A program made the translations under genes and the position numbers. A stretch of 23,604 nt of DNA from a virus (lineage: Duplodnaviria > Heunggongvirae > Uroviricota > Caudoviricetes): positions 1 to 23,604 of the IMG/VR virus record IMGVR_UViG_2529292985_000014. One strand, given 5' to 3'. Below, one piece after another: positions 626 to 23,604 of the stretch. The notes below the pieces were generated by a model, which was given only the letters and a program-made list of their open reading frames with translations, did no database searches and was not told the DNA's origin. The stretch's first letter is position 1, and the number at the start of each line of letters is the position of its first letter.

Positions 626-1120
626 TTAATCAAGACAAACATACTCCGTGATAGCTTTTATGGCTTCAGCGGCACTGCGCGCCTCAAAGCAGTAGTAACC
701 GGCTTCTGTGAGGCGCGTCATCCAGACGAGTTGTTCGGGAGTCAGGCGATTTCTCCCATGTTTCATCTCAATGCGCATTCCGTGGTATCCCCCACAAGCA
801 AGGTCTATAGAAAGATCGGGATATCCCTTCTTTTGGCCCTCTGCCACCATTTTTATTGCCGTCCTTATGCCTCGCAGGCCACCGTTTGGAGTGGCGTGAG
901 TATGCTCATACACATAACGCATATTGCGATACATCCAGTCCAGGACGCGAACCTGCTCGTAATGCTCATGGTTCCTTTTGATTAGATCTGGATTTTTCTC
1001 CAGTTCTCTAAGAGCTGCGGCATGTGGGGATGTTTCAGAATATTCACTGCGACGCCTTCTCTTTCGCGCTATTTTTCTAACACACCCATTGATAGTAAAT
1101 ATGCAAAATAATAACAACAA
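626..1120 (-). CDS. VRR-NUC domain (PD-(D/E)xK) nuclease with basic N-terminal extension
   Basis: Translation contains PNGG...GYPDLSIDL...GMRIEMK...RLTPEQLVWMTRLTEAGYY, matching the VRR-NUC pattern (G-x-PDL, E-x-K, LTPEQ..W) as I recall it. Only in-frame starts upstream of the domain are TTG 1120 or 1117, with no Shine-Dalgarno, so the start is uncertain. Confidence 0.55.
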   Translation of the reverse strand: MLLLFCIFTINGCVRKIARKRRRRSEYSETSPHAAALRELEKNPDLIKRNHEHYEQVRVLDWMYRNMRYVYEHTHATPNGGLRGIRTAIKMVAEGQKKGYPDLSIDLACGGYHGMRIEMKHGRNRLTPEQLVWMTRLTEAGYYCFEARSAAEAIKAITEYVCLD

Positions 1121-1992: not shown

Positions 1993-4900
1993 TTAAGCCG
2001 CCGCTTCAATGATTTTACGCACTTCATCAATTGAATAGCGCGTCGATACCATCCAGGCCGGACGGTCAAAGTCCACATCGGCAACCGGGTTAACTTCGAA
2101 GTTCCAGAAACGCCCACCGATTTTCTTGATGGCATCTTTTGCGTTGCGAATAGATGAAGATCCGGGCATATCTGCAATGAGATAAACAGCACCAGCGTCT
2201 TCACTTACGCTCCACCAGCGACCGCGGACACGTGCTTTGGCGCGAATAGGCTTATCGTTTACCACGATAATGTAATCATCATTTGCTGCCTCGTCAGCCT
2301 TATTCTCAGCAGCATCAGCCTGTTCTTCCCGTTCAGTCTTAGCCGCCGCAAGACGTTCAGCAATCTCTGACTCCGTAGCGCCACTATTTTTAAGCGACAC
2401 AAAGTCATCCCACGTTGCAGATTTCAGAGCATCAGGCAACTCTTCCACATACCCGCCCGCTTTTAAGGCGTTAGCATGGCGTATAGCCATCCCGACAAGA
2501 CGATTCAAGCTATCTGCATCTGCGAAATCATCACGGGTAATGCTTTTATCCTCAAATGCATGAATTAACGCCCCCGCTTTAATCCAGACTGTTGCAGATG
2601 TTTCAAGCGGATTATCGGCATTAGAAATGCTTAGTTGCGCACTGTAAACTGACTGATCTGCCAACGAGGCAAGTGACGCCCAACCATCTGCATCACTTTG
2701 CATTTTGTACTGATCAAACAGCGCATCACGCCATGCATTTAGCGCCATGCGTGTTTTCTCAATTTTGGTTGTGATTTTGGACGTTCGCAGTTGTTCGAAC
2801 ATCTGCGAAATCTCCGAACCATTGGTGAAGGCTTTCATGCGCCCCTGGAAATCGCGGAAAGAAAGCACGCCTCGCCAGTACGTTTCCAGGCCTTCTCCAT
2901 TTGGCTTGCGGAACAAGCTGCGGACATCTTCCTGAGTCACTTTTTCAAGTGAACGCCCGGAGAGATCGCGCCCTGCCATCCAGCCATCGAACGCCTTGAC
3001 CACATCATCCATAGTGGCCTGAGCGCCCCATGCCTCCATACCTTGCTCATAATCGAAGCCAAACAATGCACGGAGAAAACCTTCTGCCTCTGAAATACGA
3101 AGTGGGTTATCACCTGTCTGGATTTTCGCGACTTCGCGTTTTAATGCTTCGTCGTTTACATCAGGATAAATCCATTGTTCAGGTGCTATCTCGTCACTTC
3201 CAGATGCGCTAATTTTTTGACCAATCATCCCGCCATAGGTAAAGGCCATTTGAATCTGACCATTGGCGTTACGATAAGCCCAATAGTTTACATCCGGTGC
3301 TCCTTGCCAACCGCCACGATCTCTCCCAGTTACCCGCATAACACCGCTACGAATAGCGTCATAGAATTGATCGCGAGAAAGAGAGGTTGAAAGCTGGTGG
3401 CTTTGAACACCACGTGCCGCTATTTCTCGTGATTCAGCCACCCCCTCTTCAAATGTTACCGCTTCAACCACTGAGTCAAACGGTAATGTCATGGTTGAGC
3501 CAGGAGAACGAGAGTGGCGACTTGCTCTATCCAGCCAGGCGACGCGGCAGGTGTATTGCGCTTTTTCGCCCTCAATTTGTGTCACGCGTACAATCGCCGT
3601 TGTCTCGTATTCAGCATCAATGACTGCACGGTAGTAACTACCTTTATGCAACAGGATGTTCTTGCCAGTGCGCATATACTCCTGCGGGTTCTGAATAACA
3701 TCGATACTGATATCCAGCACACCAGACTTAATAGCACGCTCCACATCACCACGAGAGCGTTTCATAACAGTATCCGCGTCCTTCGCCCTGGTGATTGCAA
3801 ATCGCAATTCACGCACTCTTTTTTTAGCTTTGCTTAGTGCTGAAAGCGTATATTTCTGTCCGTTTTTGTTGGTGCCGCTCTTAATCAGTCCATCCAGATC
3901 ACTCTGGTATCGTTGCGCCTGCTCCATCGCGCTTTTCAGTTCTGCCTCCATCATGCCGATATCCTTCCCGGCAGCATTCGCCGCTTTCAGGTAGTTATCG
4001 AGAGCATTATTGGCTTCGCGTTGCGCTTTAAGTCGCAGGCGTTCCTCACGTTCTTTCGACTGACGAGCCATAATTGCGCGTCGTTCTTCCGGATTTGCCG
4101 CCAGCATAATGGCGCGCTCATCAGCGTCATCCGCATCACCATTGGCGATCTCTGACATATCGGAGGTCATCACCATCTTGATCCAGTCTTTCTTACGTTT
4201 AAGCGTATCCAGACGGAAGTCATCGAATGTGCCTTTGCCACAATAATAGTGAACATTAACCTTCTCTTGCGGAGAACCTACGCGCGCACCGCGCCCATTT
4301 CGTTGGTCGATACTGGCAGGAGTCCAGGGTAGTGTCAGGTGGTGAATATCGGTCGTTCCAATATGCAGGTTGATACCTACTTCGGCTTTCTTGTTACAGA
4401 TAATGATTTGCGTGCGCCCTTCGTTATAGTCGGCAGCAATACCTTCCATCCCCTCAAGGCCAGCATCATTTTTAGCAGAGAGATAATCCTCATATTGGGC
4501 CAGTTTACTGTAGTAGGTTTCCCATGCGCCTTCTTTGTATTCACCGTCTTTGTTTGGCGTCGGTTCGGTCGGTTTTTTGACCTTTTTCAGCTTAACACCA
4601 CCAGCCTGGCTAACAGTCGTAGCATTGATAATGCCTATCTCCTGCTCTGGCATTTGCAACGCACTGGCAATGATGCGACGTAGTTTCTGGTGCTGGGCTT
4701 TCTCGTCGATAAAGATAATTTGCTTACCGTTCTTAAGCCCTTCACGAAGGTTCTCGATAAGTGCGGCATACTTAGGCGGGATCGGGTGTGACACCTGTTT
4801 CATGTCGATGCCTGCATCAGCAATTGCCTTGAGTATTTCAGCCTCCAGGTCAATGCTGGCACGCAATTCGACGTGATTTGGATGCTCACTAAATGTTGTA

Positions 4901-7900
4901 GCTACAACCTTGCTGGTACGGGTACTGACCAGGCCTCCGATCGCATCCTCCTCTGCTTCTTCTGCATCGTCTGCCGCTTTCCCACCAGCCACTTTTGGTA
5001 GGTTATTAGCTATAGACTTCACCTGTTCAGTAAGTTCTACAGGGAACTGGAATGTGATAGCGCTGGCGTAAAGATCCGGGTCGATAGCGACCTTATCCAT
5101 GTCGCGAATGATAGAGAAAATGAAATCATCCGGTTTCCCGCGAGTGATATTGCCTTCATCATCGACAGTGACGTCATCACCACGACTTAACTCCTGCGCG
5201 CGTTTACGAAGCTCTTCATAAGCTGCTTGCTGCTCTGGAGTCATTGGGATCTGCAAGGTGTTTTCGACGATATCCGGGATTTTTACCGTTGCACCAACAT
5301 CGGAAGCCGTTTTAAGCGTTGTCCAGCGGTGGAAAATGCCACGCAGACCATCAAGGTTCTGGAAGCCCACCAGCCCCTGTTTCTCTTCCACTTCGCCAGA
5401 AATTTTCTGGACCTGAACAGTGGCTGTTTTACCGAACACTCGCACAAAGTCGTCAGGGGTAATAATCCCCATGTGCATCCACTCGTGCTGAGGGATCACC
5501 GTTGACAGCATGTTGAAGGCGTCAATAGGGCTATTAACCAGCGGAGTTGCTGTCAGCATTACGACGCCGCGCCCATTGTGACGTTTCATCATGTACGCAG
5601 CTTTTACAGCCATGTCACGGGCCATTTTGGATACCGCCGGATTAGGTAAATATGCCAGTTGCCCCGCTTCACGCCCGGCACCAAAGGAGTTGCGGTAGTT
5701 ATGCCCTTCGTCGGCAATTACGCTATCGAAGTTCATATCCTCAAAGTACGGGATATTCTGCTTCTTCGCTGTACCGGTATTCGCGGCCTGGTCCTTAATC
5801 TTGTTCTTCTTCTGCGCATCACGGTGCTTGCCTGACGCCAGGTCAAGACGCCCCATTTCGGCGGCATTAAAGACAGCCTGCTGTGAGTTTTCTCCGATGG
5901 TTTCATCGCGCAACGGGATAGATGCGAACTGCTCTTTTGTCATGATGACCGTTCGCCAGTTCGACGATGGGATCATGTTCATGCGTTGAGCGATAACGGC
6001 ACTGGCGGATTCTTTAACAACATTACGGGTGATCGGATTGCCGTCGTTATCAAGTCGCGGGGTGCCGTCCTGGTCGAGCACTGGGGCAGTCTGAATATTT
6101 CCGTCACCATCGCGCACTTCGTCCAGACCGATAAACATCATATTGGCGAAGGCATCTGCACTGTAGAAGCTCTGTGCCTCGTGATACCAGTTCTGGTATA
6201 CGGCCTTTGGAACAACGATACAGGTACGTTTGGTTCGCCCGGTTTCAAAGTTATAGGCTTCCAGTGCCAGCGCGGTCGTCGTTTTACCCAAACCAGTTCC
6301 GAATCCCATAATCCCGCGCCCATCTTCCGACAGACGACGAACTTCTTCGTTCTGGTAAGAAAGCGGTATACGTTTCCCGCTGATGCCTTCAAGCCCCAGG
6401 GGTGCGTCTGAATGGGTAAATGGAATATAACCGTTAAAGGCGTCGTTATAATCGCGGGCGATCTGGTCTGCCTGCGGGTGAGTTCTTAACCAGTCGTTAA
6501 AACTCGTCTCAAGCTGGGCGATTTTGTCCAGGTACTCGTTAGCGTTCTGTCCGCGCGGTTTAACACCGTTCAGGTAGTTCTCAAGCTGATTCAGGAAGCC
6601 ATCTTTGTTATTCGCTTTCTTGAACTCGTTCCCGTTTTTGCCGTTTACGGTTCGTAGCTGGTAGCCAGTAAATACCCCGTCCTTACCTTCGTAATCGTCC
6701 GGGGATACCAGAATGCCGTTCTCAACCTTAAGGTCGGGTTCTGTATACTTAAACTCGTCATAGCCCTGCTCTGCCAGGAACTCTTTTATCAGGCGGCGAT
6801 CCAACCACCGTGCGTTAAGGTTTACCGTGACTTTGTTCAGCGGTGTAAACGTGCGTTTCTCTTCGATTTTTGAAAGCTGGCGCTCAAAGTTGGCCTTCCG
6901 CTCTCCTGTGGACGCGTCTCGCCAGCCCACCAGCAGTGCCACTTTTGATTTAATATCACCGCTAGTGGCACGGCCCATCGGTAGCAGGCAACCATATCCA
7001 TCAATAGCGATATCGTCGAATTTCGCCAGGTATTCCTGTGCTTGATCGTCGTCTTCTGGCAGTTCGCCTTTAAACGCCTCGCGGAAGTCATCAAGATTGA
7101 TAGGATTAAGGGCAACATCGCTGAAAAGGTGTGTCACAACCTGTTCCGGACGAGTGAAATCAATACCAGCAGCCCCTTTGCTAACATCAAGCCGTCCGGA
7201 CAGCAGATCGGATGCTTCACCGTCCTGATTGACGTTCCCGGTGAATGTCAGCCAGTTCTTCGCGCCCGCTTCGGTAATGTCGTTTAGCTTAATGGCGTGT
7301 GGTGGGCCATATTTAGCAACTTCGGCAGCCGTCAGACGTGCGGCATCAGCCAGTTCATCATCGACGTTTTCACCAAGGTTACGCTTATCCAGCGCTTTAT
7401 TGATAAGTTGCCCGATCAGCGCACCGCGCATAATGCGCTCACGGTCTTTTTCGCGTTGTTTCCCAGCAAAGCGAATCATTGCCGCTACTTCATCACTGAT
7501 AACCGATGGATAGTCGGAAGCGATCGCGGATATCTGCCCCCATGACAGAGCCAGAATGCCGTTTGTTGATTGGAACGTTGTTTGCAGATCACCGAATGTC
7601 GAAACACCATATCGGCTTACATCAAGTACGGAGGATTTGGTTGTCGCATCTTTAACCCATTGCAGGCCATCAAACTCGTGCCAGATGCCACCTACAAGGC
7701 GCTTGTCTCCTACTTTGGCGCCCTGCCATGCCTGAGTAGTTACGCCAAGCAAATCCCAATTAATGCGGCTTTCAAAGCGGCGCGATAGAGCGGTTTTCAT
7801 CGACTCATTGGATACACGACCGTCCTTTTTCACCACCAGAGTATTGCGGAAGCTGGTACGTTCCATGTCGCCGTAAACAAATCGCTTCCCTTCGGTTGTA

Positions 7901-8985: not shown

Positions 8986-9471
8986 ATGGCAAACATTGAA
9001 CCTCGCTGGCTAATTGAAGCACGTAAGCACATTGGCCTGACTGAAATAAAAGGCGCTAAACACAACCCTGAAATCGTTCAGTTTTGGCGCGACATCAAGC
9101 GCGGCGGAATTAAAGACGATGAAACGCCGTGGTGCGCAGCATTTGTCGGTGCAATGCTGGAACGTGTAGGCATCCGCTCAACAAGATTTGAGTCGGCAAA
9201 ATCCTATCTGGATTGGGGCGCGAAATTAGATACACCGGCATACGGATGTATCGTTGTATTTACCCGCGTAGGCGGTGGGCACGTAGGCTTCGTTGTCGGA
9301 CGCCGCGCCAATGGCGATCTGCTTGTCCTGGGTGGGAACCAGGGGGATGCGGTTAATATTCGCGCATTCCCAACATCAAGAGTGTCTGGCTATCGCTGGC
9401 CTGCTGGCGAACCACGCAATACCGCTCTGTTACCAGTCGGAGACGCAGCAACCTCAACTAATGAGGCATGA
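8986..9471 (+). CDS. CHAP / NlpC-P60-like Cys-His hydrolase (TIGR02594-like); candidate peptidoglycan hydrolase
   Basis: 161-aa ORF with ATG start. Candidate catalytic Cys in TPWCAAFVGAM and His in GGGHVGFVVG, spaced as in CHAP-type amidases/peptidases (from memory). Only clearly coding plus-strand gene left of cin, divergent from darB. Confidence 0.55.
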   Translation: MANIEPRWLIEARKHIGLTEIKGAKHNPEIVQFWRDIKRGGIKDDETPWCAAFVGAMLERVGIRSTRFESAKSYLDWGAKLDTPAYGCIVVFTRVGGGHVGFVVGRRANGDLLVLGGNQGDAVNIRAFPTSRVSGYRWPAGEPRNTALLPVGDAATSTNEA

Positions 9472-11374: not shown

Positions 11375-12373
11375 TTATGCCCGTCGTGAAACGAAGAGTA
11401 ATGGGGTAGTATTTTTGCTCTCCTTCGGCGATAACTCCGGCTCTTTCTTGCCTGATATCGGCAAGCCATAAGTCGCATTTGCCCCCAGTGATTCAAGCAT
11501 CGCAGCCACTATGCGAGCATCATCTTCAGACTGCATACGGCAGAGCGCCCGGCGCTGTTCTGCGCTAATAAAAACAGGCATTTCCTGGATAGCGTCACGC
11601 AAAATCCGGCGGCATTGCTTTGCATTTTCCCCCTGGCTTTCCATCATCGCTGTTTGAGTGCGCAGCTTATCTCGAAGCTGTATGTTTTCCACTTCAAGGA
11701 GCATCAATTCTGACTCAAGGGCTTCACGCTGTGCTGACTCGAAAATAGCCTGCTGATTCTTCATTGCTGAAAAGTGGTGAACAAGATCCGTAGCCGCGTT
11801 ATCGGTAAAACCTTGTTCGATAAGTGCCGCATGAATAGCCGCGTCGCGCTCTTCTGCTGATTCCAGCATCAGGCTTTTCTTGTCCAGACTGATATAGTTA
11901 GGCACAGTTACGTAATCAAAGCCGTGAAAAGACTTTACCAGGGATACAGATGAATCTGGGCCAGATGTAGCCCATGACCAACCACCCGCACCAGAATTAA
12001 TCATTCCCTGTACAATACGCCCGGTGTCTGTATCCAGTATTTCCTGCGTATGGGTAACAATGCCGTTGTCGTCAATCGAAATGTCGATAGTCCTGTTTGA
12101 TGGCACGTTCTCCAATACAACAGGTTTCCCATCAACCATCACAACAGAGACTTCCGGCAGGTTCAGGCTTTTCGTTTTGTTATAGTGCATCGCCCGGCGA
12201 CCATGACCGTAATAGCCATACATCTCACCAAGTGCGATACGCTCTTTTGTTTCTGGCGAGTTGAATGTGTCTCGCACCGACTGAATAACGTAATTTCGGT
12301 TGTTCTGCGGTGTGTGTTTGCGGATTTTCTCTACCAGGGAGAAGCGATCCGTAACAGTGTTCAGTGATTGCAT
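11375..12373 (-). CDS. Putative prohead protease / scaffold-like protein (possibly P1 Pro-like)
   Basis: 332-aa ORF: N-terminal globular part with Gly/Ser-rich GAGGWSWATSG, central coiled coil ALESELMLLEVENIQLRDKLRTQ, short C-terminal tail. The layout resembles prohead protease-scaffold fusions. Assignment is by architecture and neighbourhood only. Confidence 0.3.
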   Translation of the reverse strand: MQSLNTVTDRFSLVEKIRKHTPQNNRNYVIQSVRDTFNSPETKERIALGEMYGYYGHGRRAMHYNKTKSLNLPEVSVVMVDGKPVVLENVPSNRTIDISIDDNGIVTHTQEILDTDTGRIVQGMINSGAGGWSWATSGPDSSVSLVKSFHGFDYVTVPNYISLDKKSLMLESAEERDAAIHAALIEQGFTDNAATDLVHHFSAMKNQQAIFESAQREALESELMLLEVENIQLRDKLRTQTAMMESQGENAKQCRRILRDAIQEMPVFISAEQRRALCRMQSEDDARIVAAMLESLGANATYGLPISGKKEPELSPKESKNTTPLLFVSRRA

Positions 12374-12386
12374 TATTTCCCTCCGG

Positions 12387-14069
12387 TTAATTGCTCATCA
12401 CAAATTTTGCAAAGTTTATTAACTGTTCTGGCGTCCAGTTTTCCGGATCGTCACCGGACGACAACGGCGCGGATTCGTACATACCATGCTCGTTGTTTTG
12501 CTCTGATTCATTCGCCTTAAACTCTTTGATCATGGTGTTGAGAGTGTCATCGTCGATGTGCAACTGCTCGGTAAACAGATAACGCATAAACGCGTCACTA
12601 CCAGCCAGTTTCGGGTTGTTCTGGATCTGGTCCATAATTTGGGAGATGACAGCAACAAAGTTGGCGCGTGCATCCAGTTCCCGGTTTTCCTCTTCCTGAA
12701 TAGCAGTGTTCATTGAGTTGAATTGCACGTCATAAGGGCGGTTTTTTTCGGTGTAAACCTTGCCGTATTTATAAGCGAGGTGAATGTCCAGAAGCTGATA
12801 AATAGTTCGCTGGGCGGCCTGTCTGATCCAGTTCGCACGCAATGCAGCCTGGATAGCAGTTTGCTGCCAGCCGCCTTCTCCAAGCCCTCCGCTCATCTGA
12901 TCAGCCCAGCCAAGCATTGTTGCGTCAATGCCGAGGCTTGCAGCAAGCTGCCGGAGGTGAAACATAACGTCTTCGATACCACTGATATCTGCGGGTATGG
13001 ATTGCGTATCAATGGTGATGCCGTTCTTCCCGTCTCCCATAACAGGTATCAGATGGTTAAGCACAGTTGGAATAGCGTTGGCATTAATCGACCTTTGCGC
13101 CACCAGGTCACTATGACGCTTCAATGCCTGGCTGACGCCACGCGTATAGTTCGCCGCATTAACCGGGTCAAGTGTGTTCGTCGTAAGAGCAATCAGGCGG
13201 TCAATTTTGGCTGCATTATTTCGCGTTGATTTCAGCGCGGCGAGCGAAGCACATAAATTAAGGTAAGGTTCATAGCTGTATTCCAGGAATGAAGTTCCGT
13301 AATTCTGCGTCTCCATTAACGGCTTATCAGCTTGATCACTTAACAGTGAGTACCCTTTTGTGCCGTAGCTAACCGGAATAACTTTATGCTGTGGCGTCCA
13401 ATAGGGATTTTTCATGGAAACCAGATTCCACGGTTCGGTTATTACTCTGCGCAAACTATGCGTATCCAGGATGTAATCACCACTGAATCCAACCAGCTGG
13501 CTACCGCGATAAAATTCCTGGACGAAATGTGGCAGAGTGTAATAACTGGACTCAATGCCTGTTATCCCCCTGCCCTGTTCAGCATAAGGTCGGACATAAG
13601 ACACCCCAAAGATCGCCATGATCATGGCCCATGAAGGAAGTCCGTCATTAATCATCGCCCCCAAATCAGCGGTTAACTCTTCACATCTACTTACTGCCTC
13701 GGCATCGGAACCATCCTTTGGCGAAAGGATGAATGCCTGTCCGTTTTTTTTTGAAGGCGCAAGCGCATGTGCAATGTGAATGTTTAAAGCCGTCGAGATA
13801 GTCGGGCTTTTAGCCATCGTTTCCAGGATGTTGTACTTTTGCAGGCGCTCGCCGGGCAGTTCAGCGGATAAAGAAATTGAATCTGCCTCACTCGTCATGC
13901 CATCGCTATTGCTCCCCAGGATGCCTGGACGTAAAGCAGACAGGCCGGAACGAGCAACGACACTATGTCCGCTCGTAAAAACGACCGGATCGGCGGGCGT
14001 AACATCACCACCGTTGAAGGCTTTCTTCAATGCTGACAGAAAGCCTTTGTTTTTGTCTTTCGTTGCCAT
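12387..14069 (-). CDS. Putative portal-like virion structural protein
   Basis: 560-aa ORF with ATG start preceded by GGTGA. Size and acidic C-terminus fit a portal protein. It directly precedes the protease-like gene. No diagnostic motif verified. Confidence 0.3.
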   Translation of the reverse strand: MATKDKNKGFLSALKKAFNGGDVTPADPVVFTSGHSVVARSGLSALRPGILGSNSDGMTSEADSISLSAELPGERLQKYNILETMAKSPTISTALNIHIAHALAPSKKNGQAFILSPKDGSDAEAVSRCEELTADLGAMINDGLPSWAMIMAIFGVSYVRPYAEQGRGITGIESSYYTLPHFVQEFYRGSQLVGFSGDYILDTHSLRRVITEPWNLVSMKNPYWTPQHKVIPVSYGTKGYSLLSDQADKPLMETQNYGTSFLEYSYEPYLNLCASLAALKSTRNNAAKIDRLIALTTNTLDPVNAANYTRGVSQALKRHSDLVAQRSINANAIPTVLNHLIPVMGDGKNGITIDTQSIPADISGIEDVMFHLRQLAASLGIDATMLGWADQMSGGLGEGGWQQTAIQAALRANWIRQAAQRTIYQLLDIHLAYKYGKVYTEKNRPYDVQFNSMNTAIQEEENRELDARANFVAVISQIMDQIQNNPKLAGSDAFMRYLFTEQLHIDDDTLNTMIKEFKANESEQNNEHGMYESAPLSSGDDPENWTPEQLINFAKFVMSN

Positions 14070-14133
14070 GAATCACCGCAAATTGTTTCCAGTTTTGCGG
14101 CAGCATAATCAGTATGTGATTTCAGCGGTTGGT

Positions 14134-15531
14134 TTAGTTTTCTGTACGGCAATTATTTGGAACTGTAGAATTTTCAAACATAGCAAAGTTCAGACCTTTC
14201 CCTTCGCCAAATTCACCCTCAATTTCATCAGATACAGCAGACAAAATACTACGCAGATCAACATCGCCACCGCCGAACATATCGCCCAATGCCTGTTGTT
14301 TATGAGTCAGCTCGTCGTTGATTTTTTGCGCCATTTTTTTGAATGCTGCCCCCATACGCTTCGCACTGCGATTATTTGCTACGATGAATAGCGCCAATGC
14401 CTCAGCTTCCGGTGTACTGTCGCCGAATAACCCCCTTTGGGCGATCACTTCTTCAACGGCCTGACCGTTGTCTTTGGCTTCACGTACAAGATTAATTGCT
14501 TCCTGGAGTGCTGCTATCGCCTGTGTATCCAGGCCATTAACCTGCTCTATACCGTCCACTAAGCCTGTTACTGCGTCATGGTGAGCGTCGCCAGACAGCG
14601 ACTGCATTTGCGCAAAATCGCTGGCTGCCGTATTTAATGCGATCAGGATATTACGCATTTCCGGATCTGGCTCTTCCGACACCAGCCGAACAAGCCTTTC
14701 ATCCTTGTACGCTTTGGCAAAAATTGCATTCTGGATGCGATCGATAAGCTGTTTCGTGGGACGCCCATCGGCAGTAAGCAAGCCTGCCGTCGCTGTATCG
14801 CCAATTTCGCGCAAAAACGCACGAATAAACGCATCATTGGACCGCGCCAGCAGGTTTCCATCATCTGAAGGATTAAATAGCGCCATGACGCTCTCAGTGA
14901 GAAATTGCGCATCCGCATACGCTTTTTCACTTGCTGCCATCTCTTGCAGATCACTAATGTTTGAATCGCGGGCAAATTGAGCGCGGTCTACATCTGTGAG
15001 TCTTTCTCGCACCAGTACGGGCATAGACATTTGCGAAATTTCGTCAGGATTCAGACCAAACTCTTTCGCATGGTCGATCAGGTACTGGCGATACTCATCC
15101 GCCTGTCCTTGCTCATAGGCACGCCAGATACCCATACTCCTTCCGTTGCCGGATTCAACAACGTTGTCCGGACCAACTATCGGCGCTCCATGGCTGCTCA
15201 TACCGGAATCCGTTAATTGTGCCGGGCGTAAATCGGAGGCAATACGGTTAACCTGGAGTTTGCTGGATAGCCGGGTACGATCTCGTGGTTGGAGTTCTTC
15301 CGGGAAGGCCGGGTTAATCGTACCGTCAAGGTTGTTCGAAATGATTAGACTGCTGGCATCAACGACCTTAAAAGCCGTCTTTACCTCTGCGCCTTTGCTG
15401 GTGACTACGTAGCTACTTCGCCCCATGCGTGTTTCTTTCCTCTCTAATGAAGAAACCAGAGCAATGACGCTGTTAATATCTGCGGCCTCGGAAAGCGCAG
15501 AAGTAACTGATTTGTTCAAAATACACTCCAA
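14134..15531 (-). CDS. Hypothetical alpha-helical protein, possibly a virion internal protein (downstream of the DdrA-like gene)
   Basis: 465-aa ORF. Track start is TTG 15531. An alternative TTG at 15519-15517 has GGAG 6 nt upstream. No motif recognised. Confidence 0.35.
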   Translation of the reverse strand: MECILNKSVTSALSEAADINSVIALVSSLERKETRMGRSSYVVTSKGAEVKTAFKVVDASSLIISNNLDGTINPAFPEELQPRDRTRLSSKLQVNRIASDLRPAQLTDSGMSSHGAPIVGPDNVVESGNGRSMGIWRAYEQGQADEYRQYLIDHAKEFGLNPDEISQMSMPVLVRERLTDVDRAQFARDSNISDLQEMAASEKAYADAQFLTESVMALFNPSDDGNLLARSNDAFIRAFLREIGDTATAGLLTADGRPTKQLIDRIQNAIFAKAYKDERLVRLVSEEPDPEMRNILIALNTAASDFAQMQSLSGDAHHDAVTGLVDGIEQVNGLDTQAIAALQEAINLVREAKDNGQAVEEVIAQRGLFGDSTPEAEALALFIVANNRSAKRMGAAFKKMAQKINDELTHKQQALGDMFGGGDVDLRSILSAVSDEIEGEFGEGKGLNFAMFENSTVPNNCRTEN

Positions 15532-15588
15532 CTATAGAGAAAGCTGTGAGTGTAAAAAGAGTGTGATTTATGTGAGAACAGAGAAGTG

Positions 15589-15611
15589 AAAGGGGGATTC
15601 CACCCCCTTTT
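15589..15611. terminator. GC hairpin AAAGGGGG-ATTCCA-CCCCCTTT between the DdrA-like and 465-aa genes
   Basis: Read directly. Followed by TTTTG on the plus strand and TTTC on the minus strand. A TATAGT -10-like hexamer lies just downstream on the minus strand. Could be an attenuator or partial terminator. Confidence 0.3.
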
Positions 15612-15613
15612 GA

Positions 15614-15982
15614 TTACCCGGCATAACCGTTGGCTTTCACCCAGCTTATGGTCTGTTCTTTAGCCTGCTCCAACGTAAGGAACTCGCCAACATAGTTTGA
15701 GATCCCACGCAGCGCATCAATAAATTCCATTTGTGTGGACTTTGTGAACACACCGCCCAGGAAGTCAGTCACTATCTTAGGGACTTCATCTACAACAGGA
15801 TCAGTCTGTTGTTGCGGTTCCGCTGCCGGTTGCGCGGCAGTCCCCAGGCCCAATTTCAGCATCACATCAACAATCTGCTTACCAATGGTGACGCGTTGCA
15901 ATACTGGCGCAGTTTTCTGCGCCTGCATTAGATCTGATAGCTCTTTACCTAATTTCAGGCGGTCTAAAACAGAGATGGTCAT
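15614..15982 (-). CDS. DdrA-like small protein encoded directly downstream of the DarA-like gene
   Basis: 122-aa ORF. Its ATG overlaps the upstream stop (TAATG), indicating coupling. Assignment by position only. Confidence 0.4.
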   Translation of the reverse strand: MTISVLDRLKLGKELSDLMQAQKTAPVLQRVTIGKQIVDVMLKLGLGTAAQPAAEPQQQTDPVVDEVPKIVTDFLGGVFTKSTQMEFIDALRGISNYVGEFLTLEQAKEQTISWVKANGYAG

Positions 15983-17907
15983 TAAGCACCTCCCTGCTGA
16001 ATTTCAGCCAGAATGTTGATCAGGTAGTCAACTGCTGCACCCACAGTGGCTTCGTTCTCGTCGTATCGACCTGCACTGATTAGAGCATTTGCTGCTTCCT
16101 GTACATGATCAAGTTCAGTACTGATGACCGTCAGATCGCGGGATGTAAACTGCTCCGGCACGGATTTCAGGTACTCCAGCGCTTTATCTGCCTCCTGATC
16201 AGCTTCACTTGCTGATTCACCCGCTTCTTCTGGTTCCGGCTCCTGTTCTGGTGCTGGTTGTGGTTGTGATTCTGGCTCAACCACATGCTCTGTTTTTACT
16301 TCGCTTGAATAATTTTGAAGGGCGTTATACACGTCCATAATGAAAAGGTTCTCCCCATCACCAAGTGGATACGCCACGTTTGGAAACGCTTTGCGGAAAA
16401 GAATTTTCACTTGCGCCTTGAATGTTTTCAGGTCACTGCCAAACAGGTCCACATAGCCATCAATATGTTTAGACATGCTGGACACAACCAATTGGCCTGC
16501 AAAATCTTTCAGCTCATCTTCATCAGGAAGATAGAGCAACTCGTACTGGCTGACTTCTTTATCTGTCAGTTTACGGTCATACGTAATGATACCGTGACGA
16601 GCATATCCGTAATACTGATCAGCCTGGTCAGGACGATCAAGCACGGCTTTATTTCCATCCGGCACAGCACCAACACCAGCCGGGCGAGATTGAAGTGCAT
16701 AGTGGTATTTACCTACATCTTGGCTCTCTGGTTGTGATACTGGGTTCGTCTCGGGGGCTGTCTGTGGTGGTTCGGAGTCTTCCTGCTGGCCTGGTAACAC
16801 ATCAACTTTATATTTATCTGCGTTATGCTCTCGGTAGGCTTTAAGTAATTTGGTTGCAGCATCTGCCAAACTGCCTCCTTTGACAGCACTGGCATCAATA
16901 CTGAATTTACCTTCAGGTGCTACTATCGTAACGAAATTGTCACTGCCGGACGTGACATAATTAACTTCAGCGCCATTATCCAGCACTGTTTTTCCGTCAA
17001 TGGCAAGATTATGTTTTACATGTCGCAGCTGGTCACTAAACGCTCGCTCCTTCGTTTTTTCACCTTTAGCAGACAACAATTTATCGCGTTTTTCTTGTAA
17101 TTCCTCGTTGATGGCTTTCTGGGCATCAAGTTTTTTTTGCATCTCCGTAAGAGCAGCACGCTTTTCAGTCAGCCCACGTTGCGCAACGTCCACCTGATCA
17201 ATTGTTATTGACCGTTCTTCTGCCAGTTTATCTGCTTCATTGAGATAACTCTCAATATCTGCCTTCATTTTGTCCTGGCGCTCTTTTGCTTTCTTAAACT
17301 TTTCGCTGTTACGCTCAATCAAATTAGATAGCGCCTGGCATACCTGGCTTAAAGAAACATCTCTCCCACCAATCGGGGCGACAACGTGAGTTACGTTACG
17401 CTTATTAAGTAAAAACTGAAATGCAACAAGCTCGTCGTTACTCTTTATTTTTGCCCCGTCAGCTGTTGGAGAGTGGAAAATTATGCTTGTACTCTGCCCG
17501 TCAGTAAGCGGTATCTGCGCGGTCAAAACAGGGATATTAGCTACCCGACGTACACGACCGATAATCGCACCACCAATACAATTACGTCCATTTTCATCGG
17601 TCCCGGCTTCATCAGTCCCTGCCATAATATTCGTACCATTCAGGCCACGATTCAGCGCACGGACGAAAGCTCGCATTGTTTGAGCTAACCGAATTCTGGT
17701 TGTAGTTATGGACTCAAACATAGCTTCGTCAGACACAACCAGAATTTCATTGCCCATATAGGCAAGCTCAATATCTTCTAAGGTCGCCGCCTCAAAAATC
17801 AGGTCATCTTCGCTTAATTCTTCTGAAGACCAGCGACCTGGCATATAGCCGGGGATCGTATCAGCAAAAGTAGACTGAATATTAATTCGTAAAGGATTGT
17901 TAATCAT
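15982..17907 (-). CDS. darA: DarA-like internal head / anti-restriction protein
   Basis: Track ORF is 654 aa from 17946. ATG at 17907 has GGAGG 6 nt upstream and overlaps the upstream stop (ATGATTAA), giving 641 aa. Long coiled coil (KFKKAKERQDKMKADIESYLNEADKLAEE...) and acidic Pro/Glu-rich low-complexity segment (EPESQPQPAPEQEPEPEE). Sits after holin, LydB-like and Hdf-like genes, as I recall for the P1 darA operon. Confidence 0.5.
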   Translation of the reverse strand: MINNPLRINIQSTFADTIPGYMPGRWSSEELSEDDLIFEAATLEDIELAYMGNEILVVSDEAMFESITTTRIRLAQTMRAFVRALNRGLNGTNIMAGTDEAGTDENGRNCIGGAIIGRVRRVANIPVLTAQIPLTDGQSTSIIFHSPTADGAKIKSNDELVAFQFLLNKRNVTHVVAPIGGRDVSLSQVCQALSNLIERNSEKFKKAKERQDKMKADIESYLNEADKLAEERSITIDQVDVAQRGLTEKRAALTEMQKKLDAQKAINEELQEKRDKLLSAKGEKTKERAFSDQLRHVKHNLAIDGKTVLDNGAEVNYVTSGSDNFVTIVAPEGKFSIDASAVKGGSLADAATKLLKAYREHNADKYKVDVLPGQQEDSEPPQTAPETNPVSQPESQDVGKYHYALQSRPAGVGAVPDGNKAVLDRPDQADQYYGYARHGIITYDRKLTDKEVSQYELLYLPDEDELKDFAGQLVVSSMSKHIDGYVDLFGSDLKTFKAQVKILFRKAFPNVAYPLGDGENLFIMDVYNALQNYSSEVKTEHVVEPESQPQPAPEQEPEPEEAGESASEADQEADKALEYLKSVPEQFTSRDLTVISTELDHVQEAANALISAGRYDENEATVGAAVDYLINILAEIQQGGA

Positions 17908-18520
17908 GCTCATCCTCCAGGCGCGCGATTTCTTCTTTAAGAGCACGTGTCTTAGCTACTTCCTGAGACAAGGCAGCTTTAACGTTACCCGTATCTTGCA
18001 TTACTTTGTCTGACTTGCTCTGGAGTTTAGACAGTTTGTCGTTAGCATTAGCGATATCTTCACGGAGTGCATCACGTGATTCTTTCGCTTCAGCTAATTT
18101 CTGAGCGTTGGATTTAACTCCCTGCCGCTTCTTATTTTCGTCATCAATATTTTTTGCTGCACGAGCAAGTTTTCGAGCTAATGACTTCTGGAAAGAAGTT
18201 GCTCCGCGATTAAATAAAGCCGCAAGAGATTGCCCCAAAGCCGACATTGTTTTTACTGGCTTGAACGGTACTGTTTTACCATTCAGTTTGATCCCAGATA
18301 TATCACCGGTATCGTTAACCTGAACTTCCATTGTCTGTTCATCAAGACCAATAAGGGTAAACGTGCGCGTCATGATCCCATCTTTCTTCCTGCCATTACT
18401 TGCAGGGATCACCCTCGCTATCTTGTAACCACCTTTGCTGATTTCTTTGACGAGTTTTGCCAGCCCCTTTTCGTTTAACTCATCATAATTAAGAAGAACA
18501 TAATTATTCTTATTTGACAT
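17900..18520 (-). CDS. hdf: Hdf-like protein (homolog of a DarA fragment)
   Basis: Likely start ATG 18520 with AAGGAGG 5 nt upstream (the track GTG 18535 is less likely). Segment SALGQSLAALFNRGATSFQKS resembles DarA-like LSQVCQALSNLIERNSEKF, and both are followed by a coiled coil. Confidence 0.45.
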   Translation of the reverse strand: MSNKNNYVLLNYDELNEKGLAKLVKEISKGGYKIARVIPASNGRKKDGIMTRTFTLIGLDEQTMEVQVNDTGDISGIKLNGKTVPFKPVKTMSALGQSLAALFNRGATSFQKSLARKLARAAKNIDDENKKRQGVKSNAQKLAEAKESRDALREDIANANDKLSKLQSKSDKVMQDTGNVKAALSQEVAKTRALKEEIARLEDEHD

Positions 18521-18956
18521 CCCAGCCTCCTTCACGCTTTTCGATCGTAAACTGGCGCTCTATGCAGTCATTGATAGGGAAAATGCGATAAAGCGGATTC
18601 AGTCGGCAGTTACCGTTAGTCAATGTGACTTTCAGATCCCACTTCGTTGGCTCAAGATATTTCGTATCGATGAGCAAATACTCTTCTCTCTCACCGCGTT
18701 TTGAGGCGTCAACTGGTCGTGTTTTCCCTGAAATAACCACAGATGGATTTTTCAGGTCTTGCAACCAATATTCGATTTGAGCATTGCTGACCCAGCTTCG
18801 CTTAACACGTAGCGAAACAGGAAATGCTATAGCAGATTCTTTCACTACAGCGTCACCAATACTCAAAATCTCAACACTCTTGCGACGAAAAATGAAACGG
18901 TCAATGATGGCAACAAATGCCATGATAAAAATGAAATAATTCCCAAAGTTACCCAT
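18510..18956 (-). CDS. LydB-like membrane-anchored protein (candidate antiholin or lysis regulator)
   Basis: 148-aa ORF. ATG overlaps the holin stop (TAATG). N-terminal hydrophobic segment NYFIFIMAFVAIIDRFIF followed by a soluble domain. Confidence 0.45.
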   Translation of the reverse strand: MGNFGNYFIFIMAFVAIIDRFIFRRKSVEILSIGDAVVKESAIAFPVSLRVKRSWVSNAQIEYWLQDLKNPSVVISGKTRPVDASKRGEREEYLLIDTKYLEPTKWDLKVTLTNGNCRLNPLYRIFPINDCIERQFTIEKREGGWDVK

Positions 18957-19282
18957 TATTTCTCTCCACCTTTTCCCCCATTCGCTATTACGCTTAAGAG
19001 ATTCAAGACGTTACTAGCTCTGGACTTCAAGCCCTGTAAAATTTCTCTTCCGTTGTTACTGGCAATCAGAACAACGCAGAAAATGATACCTTCAGGCCAT
19101 TCCTGGCTAACCGCCACCCCATACCCCGCAAGCCCGGCTGTTACCGCAGTAAACAATTCACTCGCAAGATTGAGCAGGGACGCAGAAATGCGCCCGTCTC
19201 TAACTCCGAGAAGGAATACGCCGGTTCCACTTAGTAGGGATGTTATGACTACTACAGCCAGATTTTCATAATCTGCAAACAT
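18956..19282 (-). CDS. lydA: Holin (LydA-like), three predicted transmembrane segments
   Basis: 108-aa ORF with strong SD GGAGGGG before the ATG. Hydrophobic stretches LAVVVITSLLSGTGVFLLGV, LFTAVTAGLAGYGVAV and IIFCVVLIAS. Basic C-terminus. First gene of the operon. Confidence 0.55.
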   Translation of the reverse strand: MFADYENLAVVVITSLLSGTGVFLLGVRDGRISASLLNLASELFTAVTAGLAGYGVAVSQEWPEGIIFCVVLIASNNGREILQGLKSRASNVLNLLSVIANGGKGGEK

Positions 19283-19294
19283 ACCCCTCCAGAA

Positions 19295-19325
19295 ATAACA
19301 TCTAATGCGCCACTAACTTAGTCAG
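19295..19325 (-). promoter_or_regulatory. Candidate late-type promoter for the lydA-darA operon: palindrome ACTAAGTTAGT upstream of a -10-like TTAGAT
   Basis: On the minus strand the 11-bp palindrome (plus 19311-19321) is centred about 11-12 bp upstream of TTAGAT (plus 19299-19304). There is no -35 hexamer. This matches my recollection that P1 late promoters carry an inverted repeat centred near -22 instead of a -35. Confidence 0.3.
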
Positions 19326-19387
19326 TTTGTTATTTCCTTACAGGACATCTTCTAAAATCTCCCTCCTTAACATACAAGGGGGAACAT

Positions 19388-19948
19388 ATGCTTATTGGAT
19401 ACATTCGCGTATCAACTAATGACCAAAACACAGCTTTACAACGAAACGCCCTTGAAAGCGCAGGATGTGAGCTAATTTTTGAGGATAAGGCGAGCGGCAA
19501 AAAGGCTGAACGCCCTGGGTTAAAAAAGGTTCTCCGTATGCTTTCCAGAGGTGACACCCTGGTCGTATGGAAGTTAGATCGTCTTGGGCGCAGTATGCGT
19601 CACTTGGTTGTGCTGGTGGAAGAGCTTCGTGACATAGGCATTAACTTCCGGAGTCTCACTGACTCCATCGACACCAGTACACCAATGGGGCGCTTTTTCT
19701 TTCACGTAATGGGGGCGCTGGCAGAAATGGAACGTGAGCTTATCGTTGAACGTACACGCGCTGGACTTGATGCGGCTCGCGCAGAAGGTCGTATAGGTGG
19801 GCGTCGGCCTAAATACCAAGAAGAAACATGGCAGCAAATGCGGCGATTGCTGGAGAAGGGAATCCCCCGTAAGCAGGTTGCAATCATCTATGATGTGGCT
19901 GTTTCCACGCTTTATAAGAAGTTTCCGGCGTCATCATTTCAATCCTAA
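19388..19948 (+). CDS. cin: Cin/Gin/Hin-family serine DNA invertase
   Basis: 186-aa ORF. N-terminal MLIGYIRVSTNDQN with the catalytic Ser. Conserved VVWKLDRLGRS and FHVMGALAEMERELI. C-terminal HTH GIPRKQVAIIYDVAVSTLYKK. SD AAGGGGGAA before the ATG. Confidence 0.85.
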   Translation: MLIGYIRVSTNDQNTALQRNALESAGCELIFEDKASGKKAERPGLKKVLRMLSRGDTLVVWKLDRLGRSMRHLVVLVEELRDIGINFRSLTDSIDTSTPMGRFFFHVMGALAEMERELIVERTRAGLDAARAEGRIGGRRPKYQEETWQQMRRLLEKGIPRKQVAIIYDVAVSTLYKKFPASSFQS

Positions 19949-19965
19949 ACCTTGGTTTAAGAGAA
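19940..19965. other. cix-like recombination crossover site
   Basis: CAATCCTAAACC-TT-GGTTTAAGAGAA: two imperfect 12-bp inverted half-sites around a 2-bp core at 19952-19953. About 9 of 12 matches per half-site to the gix/hix-type half-site TTATCCAAAACC as I recall it. Overlaps the cin stop codon (19946-19948). Confidence 0.5.
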
Positions 19966-19995
19966 CTCGGTACCAGCGGTGAAAAGATCCCCCTG

Positions 19996-22857
19996 TTGAG
20001 CACGGCTAACACATGGAGTTCACGCCAGACTTTCAACGGCGGGATCACCGGGGCGCTGACAGGGAACGCCGACACCGCGACGAAACTTGCGACGGCAAGA
20101 AACATCAACGGTGTTAAATTTGATGGTTCTGTGGACATTTCGATACCAACAATTACGTCCAGAGGGCGTGTTACTGCGCTCACCGGTACAACACAAGGTG
20201 CTGCTACTGGATTGCAAATGTATGAGGCGTACAACAACGGCTATCCTTCTGTTTACGGGAATGTGCTTCATCTTAAGGGCGCAACGGCAGTTGGTGAAGG
20301 TGAGTTGTTCATAGGTTGGAGCGGTACAAGTGGCGCTCATGCACCTGTACATGTACGTTCGCGACGAGATACTGATACAGCCAGTTGGTCAGAGTGGGCG
20401 CAGGTCTACACATCGAAGGATTCCATCCCTGGTGTAAATACCACGGGCAACCAGAACACAACCGGAAACGCGGCGTCTGCAACGAAATTACAAACGGCAA
20501 GAACTATTGGTGGTGTTTCATTTAATGGCACCGCAAACATCGACCTGCCGGGCGTGAATAAAACAGGCAATCAGAGCACTACCGGCAATGCAGCTACAGC
20601 CACAAAACTGCAAACAGCACGCACCATTAATGGGGTTTCATTTGACGGAACGGCTAATATTTCTCTGTCACCGGCAAATATTGGTTGCCCGGCATCTCCT
20701 ACTGGTTGGCTTGAAACAGGTGATAATGGAGCATCAATAACAACAGAGCAATTAGTGACTCTGCTACGAGATAATGGTGCTTTTAATGCAAAGGTATGGA
20801 TAGCGCGTTGTGCCTGGGCGTATGCAAATAGTGCATCCATACCAGACAGCGAAACAGGATGCGGCATTATTCCACTGGCGGGTGCTGTGATAGAAGTATT
20901 CAGCAATAATACCAACAATTACACCATTCGAATAACAACGGCAACGACGACAAGTGTATCTGGCGCACTCACTAATGCTGAATTTATCTATGTGTCTAAT
21001 GGCACAAGTTATTCACCAGGATGGCGCAGAGCGTATAACACTAAAAACAAACCTACTGCGGCTGATGTCGGAGCTTTACCACTATCTGGAGGAGCGTTAA
21101 CTGGCGGATTAACTGCTGCTGGCGAGATTATTTCCAAATCGGCGAATGGTCTGCGCATTGCCTATGGCAACTATGGATTCTTTATCCGAAACGATGGTTC
21201 AAACACATATTTCATGTTGACCGATTCGGGTAACAGCCTGGGAACCTATAATAGGTTAAGGCCGCTTATCATTAACAATGCCAATGGTACTGTTACGATC
21301 GGTAATGGACTCAATGTTACTGGCGGCATCAATGGTAGTTTGAACGGTAATGCTTCAACAGCTACGAAGTTGCAAACTGCTAGAAAAATAAGCGGCGTGT
21401 CTTTTGATGGTTCTGCTGATATAACACTAACAGCTGAAAATGTATCTGCTTTTGCTCGACGCGCTACTGGAACTTATGACGATACTAGTGGTGCGGTCCC
21501 GTGGAATGCCGAATCAGGTGCGTATAATGTTACACGCTCCGGGGCTTCTTATATCGTTGCAAATTTTTATACAGGCGTAGGTAGTTGTCGGACTCTCCAA
21601 ATCCGAGCGCATTATAAAAATGGTGGATTGTATTACCGTTCATCACGTGATGGCTATGGGTTCGAAGAGGACTGGACTCAGATATATACTAAAAAAGACA
21701 GCATCCCTGGTGTGAATACAACTGGTAATCAGAACACTACTGGCAATGCTGCAACTGCAACAAAACTGCAAACAGCACGCACAATAGGCGGAGTGTCATT
21801 CGATGGTAGTGCCAATATCGACCTGCCAGGTGTGAATAAAACAGGTAATCAGAACACTACCGGTAATGCAGCGACAGCGACCAAGTTGCAGACAGCATGT
21901 ACTATCAACGGCGTCTCGTTTGATGGTTCTAAAGATATTGAACTTAACCCACGGTCTATAGGCACGATCAACTCCACAACAATGTCTTTTAGTGGTGGTG
22001 CTGGATGGTTCAAACTGGCAACTGTAACCATGCCACAGGCCAGTTCCGTGGTTTACATAAGCCTGATTGGTGGTGCAGGGTTTAACGTTGGCTCCCCGCA
22101 GCAAGCAGGCATCTCTGAGCTGGTTCTGCGTGCAGGAAATGGAAATCCAAAAGGTATTACTGGTGCATTATGGCGACGGACCTCGGTTGGATTTACTAAT
22201 TTTGCATGGGTGAATACATCCGGTGATACCTATGATGTTTATGTTGAAATAGGTAATTACGCCACAGGTGTTAATATTCAGTGGGATTATACCAGTAACG
22301 CCAGCGTAACGATTCATACATCACCAACTTATACAGCGAATAAACCAACAGGCCTGACAGATGGAACTGTATATGTAATTTACAGTTCGCACATTAAACC
22401 GACTGCTGCTGAGGTTGGGGCGTTGTCATTATCTGGCGGTCAATTGAATGGTGCACTGGGCATCGGAACATCCAGTGCTCTTGGTGGTAACTCGATTGTT
22501 TTGGGTGATAATGACACGGGATTTAAACAAAATGGCGACGGGTATCTGGATGTTTATGCTAATAACGTCCATGTTATGCGCTTTGTCTCCGGCAGTATTC
22601 AAAGTAATAAAACCATAAATATTACAGGTCGTGTTAATCCCTCAGATTACGGTAACTTTGATTCCCGTTATGTGAAAGATGTTCGCCTGGGTACGCGTGT
22701 TGTTCAATTGATGGCGCGTGGTGGTCGTTATGAAAAAGCCGGACACGCAATTACCGGATTAAGAATCATTGGTGAAGTAGATGGCGATGATGAAGCCATC
22801 TTCAGGCCAATACAAAAATACATCAATGGCACATGGTATAACGTCGCACAGGTGTAA
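19996..22857 (+). CDS. Tail-fibre variable cassette (Sv-type C-terminal part of tail fibre protein S), currently not fused to a constant part
   Basis: 953-aa ORF that the track starts at TTG with no SD. The same frame is open upstream to 19918, across the cix-like site. At least six copies of the phage fibre repeat GNA-x-TATKLQTAR-x-I-x-GV-x-FDG. Confidence 0.75.
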   Translation: MSTANTWSSRQTFNGGITGALTGNADTATKLATARNINGVKFDGSVDISIPTITSRGRVTALTGTTQGAATGLQMYEAYNNGYPSVYGNVLHLKGATAVGEGELFIGWSGTSGAHAPVHVRSRRDTDTASWSEWAQVYTSKDSIPGVNTTGNQNTTGNAASATKLQTARTIGGVSFNGTANIDLPGVNKTGNQSTTGNAATATKLQTARTINGVSFDGTANISLSPANIGCPASPTGWLETGDNGASITTEQLVTLLRDNGAFNAKVWIARCAWAYANSASIPDSETGCGIIPLAGAVIEVFSNNTNNYTIRITTATTTSVSGALTNAEFIYVSNGTSYSPGWRRAYNTKNKPTAADVGALPLSGGALTGGLTAAGEIISKSANGLRIAYGNYGFFIRNDGSNTYFMLTDSGNSLGTYNRLRPLIINNANGTVTIGNGLNVTGGINGSLNGNASTATKLQTARKISGVSFDGSADITLTAENVSAFARRATGTYDDTSGAVPWNAESGAYNVTRSGASYIVANFYTGVGSCRTLQIRAHYKNGGLYYRSSRDGYGFEEDWTQIYTKKDSIPGVNTTGNQNTTGNAATATKLQTARTIGGVSFDGSANIDLPGVNKTGNQNTTGNAATATKLQTACTINGVSFDGSKDIELNPRSIGTINSTTMSFSGGAGWFKLATVTMPQASSVVYISLIGGAGFNVGSPQQAGISELVLRAGNGNPKGITGALWRRTSVGFTNFAWVNTSGDTYDVYVEIGNYATGVNIQWDYTSNASVTIHTSPTYTANKPTGLTDGTVYVIYSSHIKPTAAEVGALSLSGGQLNGALGIGTSSALGGNSIVLGDNDTGFKQNGDGYLDVYANNVHVMRFVSGSIQSNKTINITGRVNPSDYGNFDSRYVKDVRLGTRVVQLMARGGRYEKAGHAITGLRIIGEVDGDDEAIFRPIQKYINGTWYNVAQV
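20403..20690 (+). repeat. Internal tail-fibre module, copy 1
   Basis: Encodes YTSKDSIPGVNTTGNQNTTGNAASATKLQTARTIGGVSFNGTANIDLPGVNKTGNQSTTGNAATATKLQTARTINGVSFDGTANISL. Near-identical at protein level to copy 2, diverged at synonymous positions. Confidence 0.7.
21684..21965 (+). repeat. Internal tail-fibre module, copy 2
   Basis: Encodes YTKKDSIPGVNTTGNQNTTGNAATATKLQTARTIGGVSFDGSANIDLPGVNKTGNQNTTGNAATATKLQTACTINGVSFDGSKDIEL. Lies 1281 bp downstream of copy 1, in frame. Confidence 0.7.
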
Positions 22858-23388
22858 ATGATGCAGCATTTAAAAAATATTAAGTCTGGAAATCCTAAAA
22901 CAAAAGAACAATATCAGCTAACAAAGAATTTTGATGTTATCTGGTTATGGTCCGAAGACGGAAAAAACTGGTATGAGGAAGTGAAAAACTTTCAGCCAGA
23001 CACAATAAAGATTGTTTACGATGCAAATAATATTATTGTCGCCATCACCAAAGATGCCTCCACGCTTAACCCTGAAGGTTATAGCGTCGTTGAGGTTCCA
23101 GATATTACAGCCAACCGCCGCGCTGATGATTCCGGTAAGTGGATGTTTAGGGACGGAGCTGTGGTTAAACGGATTTATACGGCAGACGAGCAACAACAAC
23201 AGGCCGAATCACAAAAGGCCGCATTGCTTTCCGAAGCTGAATCAGTCATCCAGCCGCTGGAACGCGCTGTCAGGCTGAATATGGCAACAGACGAGGAGCG
23301 CACACGACTGGAAGCATGGGAACGCTACAGCGTTCTTGTAAGCCGCGTGGATACGGCAAAGCCAGAATGGCCACAAAAACCTGAGTAA
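22858..23388 (+). CDS. Tail fibre assembly protein (U / Tfa-type chaperone)
   Basis: 176-aa ORF. ATG abuts the tail-fibre stop (TAAATG). C-terminus ...[27 protein letters not shown] is typical of Tfa-family proteins. Confidence 0.7.
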
Positions 23389-23415
23389 AAATAAGGCCCG
23401 ATAACGGGCCTTTTC
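23389..23415. terminator. Bidirectional terminator between convergent tail-fibre assembly genes
   Basis: A-tract, stem GGCCCG (23395-23400), loop ATAA, stem CGGGCC (23405-23410), then T-rich run. Fills the gap between the two convergent stops at 23388 and 23416. Confidence 0.6.
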
Positions 23416-23604
23416 TCATTCTGGTTGTTCGGGAAACGTTACTGGCAGGATGGAGGTATCTGTAGATTCTACTTTCTGCGCATATAGCATCCACGCGGTT
23501 AATTTCTGTTTATTCTCATCGGAAATGATGCCCAGCCGTAGCTGTGAGTCCCACAGTTGGGTTTTATCCCTGACAAGTTGCAATAGGCTTTGCTTTTCAT
23601 TTTC
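23416..23604 (-). CDS. Partial second tail fibre assembly gene (U'-type), 3' end only; 5' end lies beyond the window
   Basis: Reverse-complement translation of 23416-23604 gives 63 codons with no stop: ENEKQSLLQLVRDKTQLWDSQLRLGIISDENKQKLTAWMLYAQKVESTDTSILPVTFPEQPE. It ends with the same W-x-Y...V...P-E-x-PE pattern as U. Not in the ORF track because the start is outside the window. Confidence 0.65.
   Translation of the reverse strand, partial: ENEKQSLLQLVRDKTQLWDSQLRLGIISDENKQKLTAWMLYAQKVESTDTSILPVTFPEQPE

Follow-up and report, generated by a model that had tools for sequence, protein, structure and literature searches.

The stretch of DNA analysed here (the window: 23,604 nucleotides, IMG/VR record IMGVR_UViG_2529292985_000014) very probably derives from a P1/P7-like phage-plasmid, and its right-hand end, where the tail-fibre assembly genes U and U' converge on a shared hairpin, would be the centre of a Cin-invertible C-segment. 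The system itself is the classical C-segment switch of P1 or G-segment switch of Mu, and as such it is already known. The arrangement of U and U' with its central hairpin has likewise been annotated before, in P1, P7, Mu and D108, and nothing about it is new in principle. What is particular to this element is a long, mosaic cassette of ~2.9 kb beside the invertase gene, yet even this feature recurs in other plasmids, for example in the P1-like E. coli plasmids NZ_CP066033.1 (L005) and NZ_CP076307.1 (L016). Placing the window among the P1/P7-like phage-plasmids, with a host-range switch that is apparently intact, helps both its annotation and the prediction of its host range, and it identifies which cassette is predicted to be silent in the sequenced orientation. 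In P1, the C-segment is a tail-fibre switch that is inverted by Cin (PMC6906374).

Gene neighbourhood and the convergent chaperone genes

Similarity searches match positions 19300-23604 to the C-segment of P7, P1, D6 and RCS47, and to hundreds of E. coli plasmids. Of 5426 complete E. coli genomes, 2240 contain parts of this 4.3-kb region. In a megablast search of phage, plasmid and complete E. coli genome sequences, no single record covers 80% or more of it. The genes of the window run from a darB-like gene through the darA operon, lydB, lydA, cin and cixL to a 2.9-kb fibre cassette and U (Table 1). The P7 record is annotated in the order darA, odaE, lydB, lydA, lydC, cin, cixL, Sv', U', Ub/Ua, Sv, cixR, Sc and R, and the same C-segment features are annotated in the P1 record. 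The window shares with both phages the neighbours of the segment (darA operon, lydB, lydA and cin) as well as the gene order. Furthermore, positions 12300-20089 are 98.7% identical to NZ_CP076307.1, in which cin is followed by a long start-less cassette, a Tfa gene, a convergent Tfa gene, a complete fibre gene of 1259 aa and a gene at the position of P1 R. As far as the window extends, its order is the same, which speaks for a P1/P7-like C-segment. The domains of the 2305-aa reading frame are as expected for an antirestriction protein of the P1 DarB type, which it is predicted to encode. The gap between lydA and cin (19283-19387) is ~105 bp long and, unlike the corresponding place in P1 and P7, where lydC is annotated, it holds no lydC-sized reading frame; such a frame is likewise absent between lydA and cin in L005, L016 and the E. 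coli plasmid NZ_CP148392.1 (L006).

Table 1. Features of the window, with positions counted from its first nucleotide
Feature	Position	Strand	Remarks
VRR-NUC ORF	626-1120	-	near the DarB-type ORF
DarB-type ORF, 2305 aa	1993-8910	-	SNF2-related, ResIII and helicase C-terminal domains; N6-methylase just below cut-off
CHAP-domain ORF	8986-9471	+	near the DarB-type ORF
lydA	18956-19282	-	
cin, serine DNA invertase, 186 aa	19388-19948	+	transcribed towards the invertible segment
cixL crossover site	19939-19973		core CTAAACCTTGGTTTAAGAGAA at 19945-19965; overlaps the cin stop codon; left boundary of the segment
Variable tail-fibre cassette, Sv type at tip, ~960 codons	19966-22857	+	no start of its own; adjoins cin
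U, tail-fibre assembly protein, 176 aa	22858-23388	+	PF02413; ends ...PEWPQKPE
GC-rich symmetrical hairpin, A/T runs on both sides	23393-23412	both	predicted bidirectional intrinsic terminator
U', 3' part, last 62 codons and stop	23416-23604	-	PF02413; ends ...PVTFPEQPE; runs off the window end

The full-length invertase gene matches the Pfam families Resolvase (170.5 bits) and HTH_7 (66.2 bits). Together with the cix-proximal flank it is 95.6% identical to P7 at the nucleotide level, and the records of P7 and P1 annotate its homologue as Cin, with the enhancer in its 5' part. As in these two phages, cin points into the segment and the crossover site overlaps its stop codon. The 35-base cixL string is matched at 35 of 35 positions in P7, where a 20-bp cixL is annotated within it, and also in L006 and L016; in the whole window it is the only cix-like site at up to three mismatches. 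Its inner half-site, GGTTTAAGAGAACTCGGTAC, recurs inverted at cixR in P7, P1, L005, L006 and L016, whereas the outer half-site differs.

The preliminary description of this region had read a plus-strand U and a minus-strand, partial U' that end 27 bp apart, with C-termini that share the signature of the Tfa proteins and are otherwise diverged. Each of these points is borne out. The U reading frame begins directly after the stop codon of the long fibre frame, with its second ATG (22861) being the counterpart of the P1/Mu start. The stop codon of U' is at 23416-23418, from where the frame is open to the window end at 23604, and the two stop codons are separated by the 27 bp at 23389-23415. Both proteins match Caudo_TAP (PF02413; curated cut-off of 22.1 bits), U with 128.6 bits and the U' fragment with 67.0 bits over profile positions 69-131. 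The gene names, too, agree with the closest homologues: U is 97.1% identical to P1 gpU and to D108 U, and 97.7% to a P7 gene that bears the name U' there by virtue of its position, while for the U' fragment the identity amounts to 96.8% with both D108 U' and P7 Ub, and to 93.5% with P1 U'. Furthermore, U is ~97% identical (E 1e-107) to 'Tail fiber assembly protein U' of Mu in the crystallised S-U complex (PDB 5yvq_B). An exact protein match of U is found in three short contigs, of which L002 is the best. That same contig encodes a complete protein of 177 aa whose C-terminus is 100% identical to the U' fragment.

When U is aligned with this complete U' from L002, the closest contig, the two are 56% identical overall. 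The N-terminal ~93 residues are ~75% identical (a value given for P7 Ua) and the last 62 residues only 31%. The C-terminal part of the chaperone is reportedly what contacts the fibre tip in the S-U complex of Mu. If so, a diverged C-terminus on a conserved N-terminus would fit chaperones that are dedicated to different fibre tips.

The full module of U, hairpin and U' is present at a coverage of at least 80% in 31 phage records, which include P1, P7, D6, Mu, D108 and P88. With the G-segment of Mu and D108 (S-U / U'-S', with gin) the window shares this module at 88-93% nucleotide identity; in D108 terminators are annotated on both strands at this place, and the fibre tip and U of the window match the Mu structure 5yvq. 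Mu and D108 differ, however, in the invertase gene gin, which is found on the opposite side, is directed away from the segment and has a nucleotide identity of only ~70%, in that their cassettes are much shorter, and in that they are transposable phages instead of phage-plasmids. A second group of matches consists of P2 gpG and other single tail-fibre assembly genes of Peduovirus, which are 85-89% identical to U over the first ~515 bp; these stop at around base 515 of the 747-base query and thus exclude the hairpin and the convergent U'. Phages of the P2 type are not known to carry an invertase. Within the module, the contigs L007 to L013 are 99-100% identical to the window over 23340-23470, a stretch that reaches from the 3' end of U across the hairpin to the end of U', and only 83% identical over 22803-23604 as a whole. 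This change in identity suggests a recombination joint inside U, near its 3' end.

The hairpin between the two stop codons

The hairpin consists of AAGGCCCG-ATAA-CGGGCCTT, with eight base pairs of which six are G-C, a loop of four nucleotides and a T-rich tail in either direction, and it is located 4 nt and 3 nt beyond the two stop codons. A consensus scan called it terminator-like on both strands, as the preliminary description had it. The predicted RNA fold reaches -21.2 kcal/mol on the plus strand and -23.0 kcal/mol on the minus strand (z about -5.0), and none of 200 dinucleotide-preserving shuffles folded as well. Among 15 related loci, including P1, P7 and D108, the stem AAGGCCCG/CGGGCCTT is invariant, while the loop occurs as ATAA, CTAT or ATAG and the flanks vary as well, a pattern that fits selection on the stem. 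Because the stem never varies among these 15 loci, there is no covariation to score and hence none to support the structure. In the D108 record, rho-independent terminators are annotated, as a prediction, on both strands at the homologous place. A scan of 19000-23604 against Rfam gave nothing at the hairpin, and a sub-threshold chance match to mir-255 (E 0.59).

From its shape and conservation we infer that the hairpin is a bidirectional intrinsic terminator, with termination as such being predicted. Most likely, it serves to end the late R-S-U fibre operon behind the chaperone gene that occupies the expressed position at the time, and to stop read-through that comes from cin on the opposite side, so that no antisense transcription would enter the other cassette. 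A segment that has to work in both orientations needs such a symmetrical element.

Could the palindrome instead be conserved for another role, such as that of a joint in module recombination or a binding site, or for no role at all? Such a reading would sit well with a stem that is invariant and hence without covariation, with the interruptions in both U-tracts (UUUUCUCAUUCU and UUAUUUUUACUC), and with the shift in similarity near the 3' end of U among L007 to L013 (99-100% versus 83%). The canonical shape of an intrinsic terminator on both strands, immediately after both stop codons, its strong folding relative to the shuffles, and the constancy of the stem next to a changing loop and flanks, from Mu-type to P1-type phages, nevertheless argue against it; moreover, the annotators of D108 made the same call as we do, and no Rfam family matches at this place. 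A palindrome that does not terminate transcription lacks positive support, and we consider it improbable.

Orientation and the far arm of the segment

The P7 record states that the cassette proximal to cin is expressed only after inversion. In the window, Sv-U follows cin and not the constant part of S, and judged by this position the plus-strand Sv-U is therefore the silent copy in the present orientation, a point that was missing from the preliminary description. L016 is in the same orientation state and has its complete fibre gene, of 1259 aa, on the far side. Among the relatives, the U-type cassette adjoins cin in P7, L006 and L016, as it does in the window, whereas in the P1 reference and in L005 it is joined to Sc, the constant part of S. 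Since it can occupy either position, both orientations occur in this family, which is indirect evidence that the switch operates there; this particular element may invert as well.

A contig of 5.3 kb (L007; IMGVR_UViG_3300012281_000016) carries the same cin-to-cassette sequence, inverted, at its two ends (1-1087 and 4207-5293). These ends are 86% identical to positions 19439-20528 of the window, and each of them has a cix site. It looks like an assembly of a segment that was present in both orientations in the sample.

How would the switch work in the window? In the proposed model, two cassettes, Sv-U and Sv'-U', face each other, each made up of a variable 3' end of S and its own chaperone gene. 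Cin would recombine two inverted cix sites, of which one is at the end of cin and the other inside S, and inversion would thereby join one cassette or the other, Sv-U or Sv'-U', to the constant part of S with its late promoter, switching the host range. In the sequenced orientation, U' would belong to the expressed operon of R, Sc-Sv' and U', which would run in from beyond the right edge of the window and stop at the hairpin, leaving Sv-U silent behind cin.

The window stops 189 bp into U', and Sv', cixR and Sc would lie beyond its end; for these we turned to the relatives. The preliminary description had taken the junction of U and U' as the centre of an Sv-U / U'-Sv' segment, with a second cassette and the far crossover site just beyond the window end. 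The first part agrees with the presence of cin and cixL in the window and with the relatives, since in five of five that are full-length the hairpin is close to the middle of the segment, namely P7 (left arm ~1880 bp, right arm ~2110 bp), P1 (~2140 and ~2100 bp), L005 (~3040 and ~3130 bp), L006 (~1640 and ~2100 bp) and L016 (~3350 and ~3100 bp); the left arm of the window measures ~3440 bp, and its right arm would lie beyond the window end. As for the second part, each of the five has exactly one further cix site, in inverted orientation, and in addition U', another fibre cassette and the constant part of S. The predicted components are therefore present in all relatives examined, but 'just' has to be read as ~2.1-3.1 kb past the hairpin, which is where the far cix site of the window should be found. 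By analogy, it would consist of an inverted GGTTTAAGAGAACTCGGTAC preceded by an outer half-site of the GTTATCCAATACC type.

In L002, L016, P1 and P7, Sv' follows U', and the constant part of S, which in the element would lie to the right of the window, is present in P7, P1, L005 and L016. The contig L002, which is 98.9% identical over 22651-23601, continues from the hairpin into U' (177 aa) and then a fibre cassette that encodes at least 621 aa, both on the minus strand. At its far end, this cassette repeats the proximal part of the window cassette in inverted orientation, and the contig ends before the crossover site. An exact 35-mer taken from the window end has matches in 7 viral contigs. 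Going by these relatives, the element itself would have a right half of the same kind.

As the right half would lie beyond the window end, it is conceivable that the segment is degenerate and frozen, having kept U and U' but suffered a deletion or disruption of the far cix, of Sv' or of the constant part of S. P1-like plasmids in which cin is truncated, or in which the C-segment is greatly altered or deleted, have been reported (PMC6906374), and in P7 the U gene is itself split into Ua and Ub. Against this, the window has a full-length cin of 186 aa with both Pfam domains and an intact cixL that is identical to the P7 site, its U' fragment is without a single difference from the intact 177-aa U' of L002, and the most syntenic complete plasmid, L016, carries the whole system. 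Loss of the switch in this element is, in our view, improbable, and we retain the reading of a C-segment that would be able to invert.

The long cassette next to cin

While cin, U, U' and the hairpin stem barely distinguish the window from P1 and P7 (95.6% nucleotide identity to P7 for cin, 97% for U, 94-97% for U', and an identical stem), the cassette between them does. At ~2.9 kb it is roughly twice as long as the cin-adjacent cassettes of P7 (1.35 kb) and P1 (1.56 kb), and it resembles these only over its first ~150-750 bp and its last ~220 bp. Its open frame, for which a mechanical start is a TTG at 19996, matches the Pfam family Gp34_trimer with 113 bits. The last ~76 aa match residues 425-503 of the Mu fibre protein S (PDB 5yvq_A), and positions 22634-23604 are 90% identical to the S-U region of P1.

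The remainder is a mosaic. One piece, 19949-21425, is 98% identical to L002, several IMG/VR contigs match a second, 21784-22679, at 94-95% identity, and 21970-23604 is 93% identical to the Yersinia pestis phage vB_YpM_39. For 21425-21740 there is no close match among the loci compared, and a 41-mer taken from the middle of the cassette, where its sequence is unique, has no exact match in genome_contigs or viral_contigs. L016 and L005 resemble the window in their layout, as they have long cassettes in both arms (~3.0-3.35 kb each), a segment of ~6.2-6.5 kb and the hairpin at its midpoint; in L005, the counterpart of 21742-23604 is 95.5% identical. However, the middle of the window cassette matches these two in pieces of 72-92% identity only, and hence none of them is the same allele.

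Within the cassette, a direct repeat of 257 nt (20392-20648 and 21670-21926) is 75% identical between its copies, and a unit of 78 nt occurs six times, at 20061, 20463, 20583, 21345, 21741 and 21861. No inverted repeats were found in 19300-23604.

The P1 relative p15B has a multi-site Min system. A shufflon-like arrangement of this type in the window, with more than two crossover sites, more than two cassettes and a U/U' junction that is not simply the middle, might account for a cassette of such unusual length and internal repetition, and the P1 record does note homologies to p15B, but with a single cix-like site in the window at up to three mismatches, a left arm of 3.4 kb that holds none, no inverted repeats, exactly two sites in the closest complete relatives and a cin that is 95.6% identical to that of P7, we regard it as highly improbable. 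The two-site C-segment is thus the reading with which we continue. The element could tentatively be placed in a sub-lineage of P1-like phage-plasmids in which the C-segment has roughly doubled to ~6.5-7 kb, with fibre ends of ~900-960 codons that are built from two stacked modules per arm, and in which the hairpin would be a needed insulator against antisense transcription into the silent cassette and cin; we consider this a possibility, though on balance a doubtful one. The 78-nt unit encodes ...TATKLQTARTIxGVSFDGS..., and a single copy departs from this in having Cys (TGT, ...QTACTING...) at the position that is Arg in the rest.
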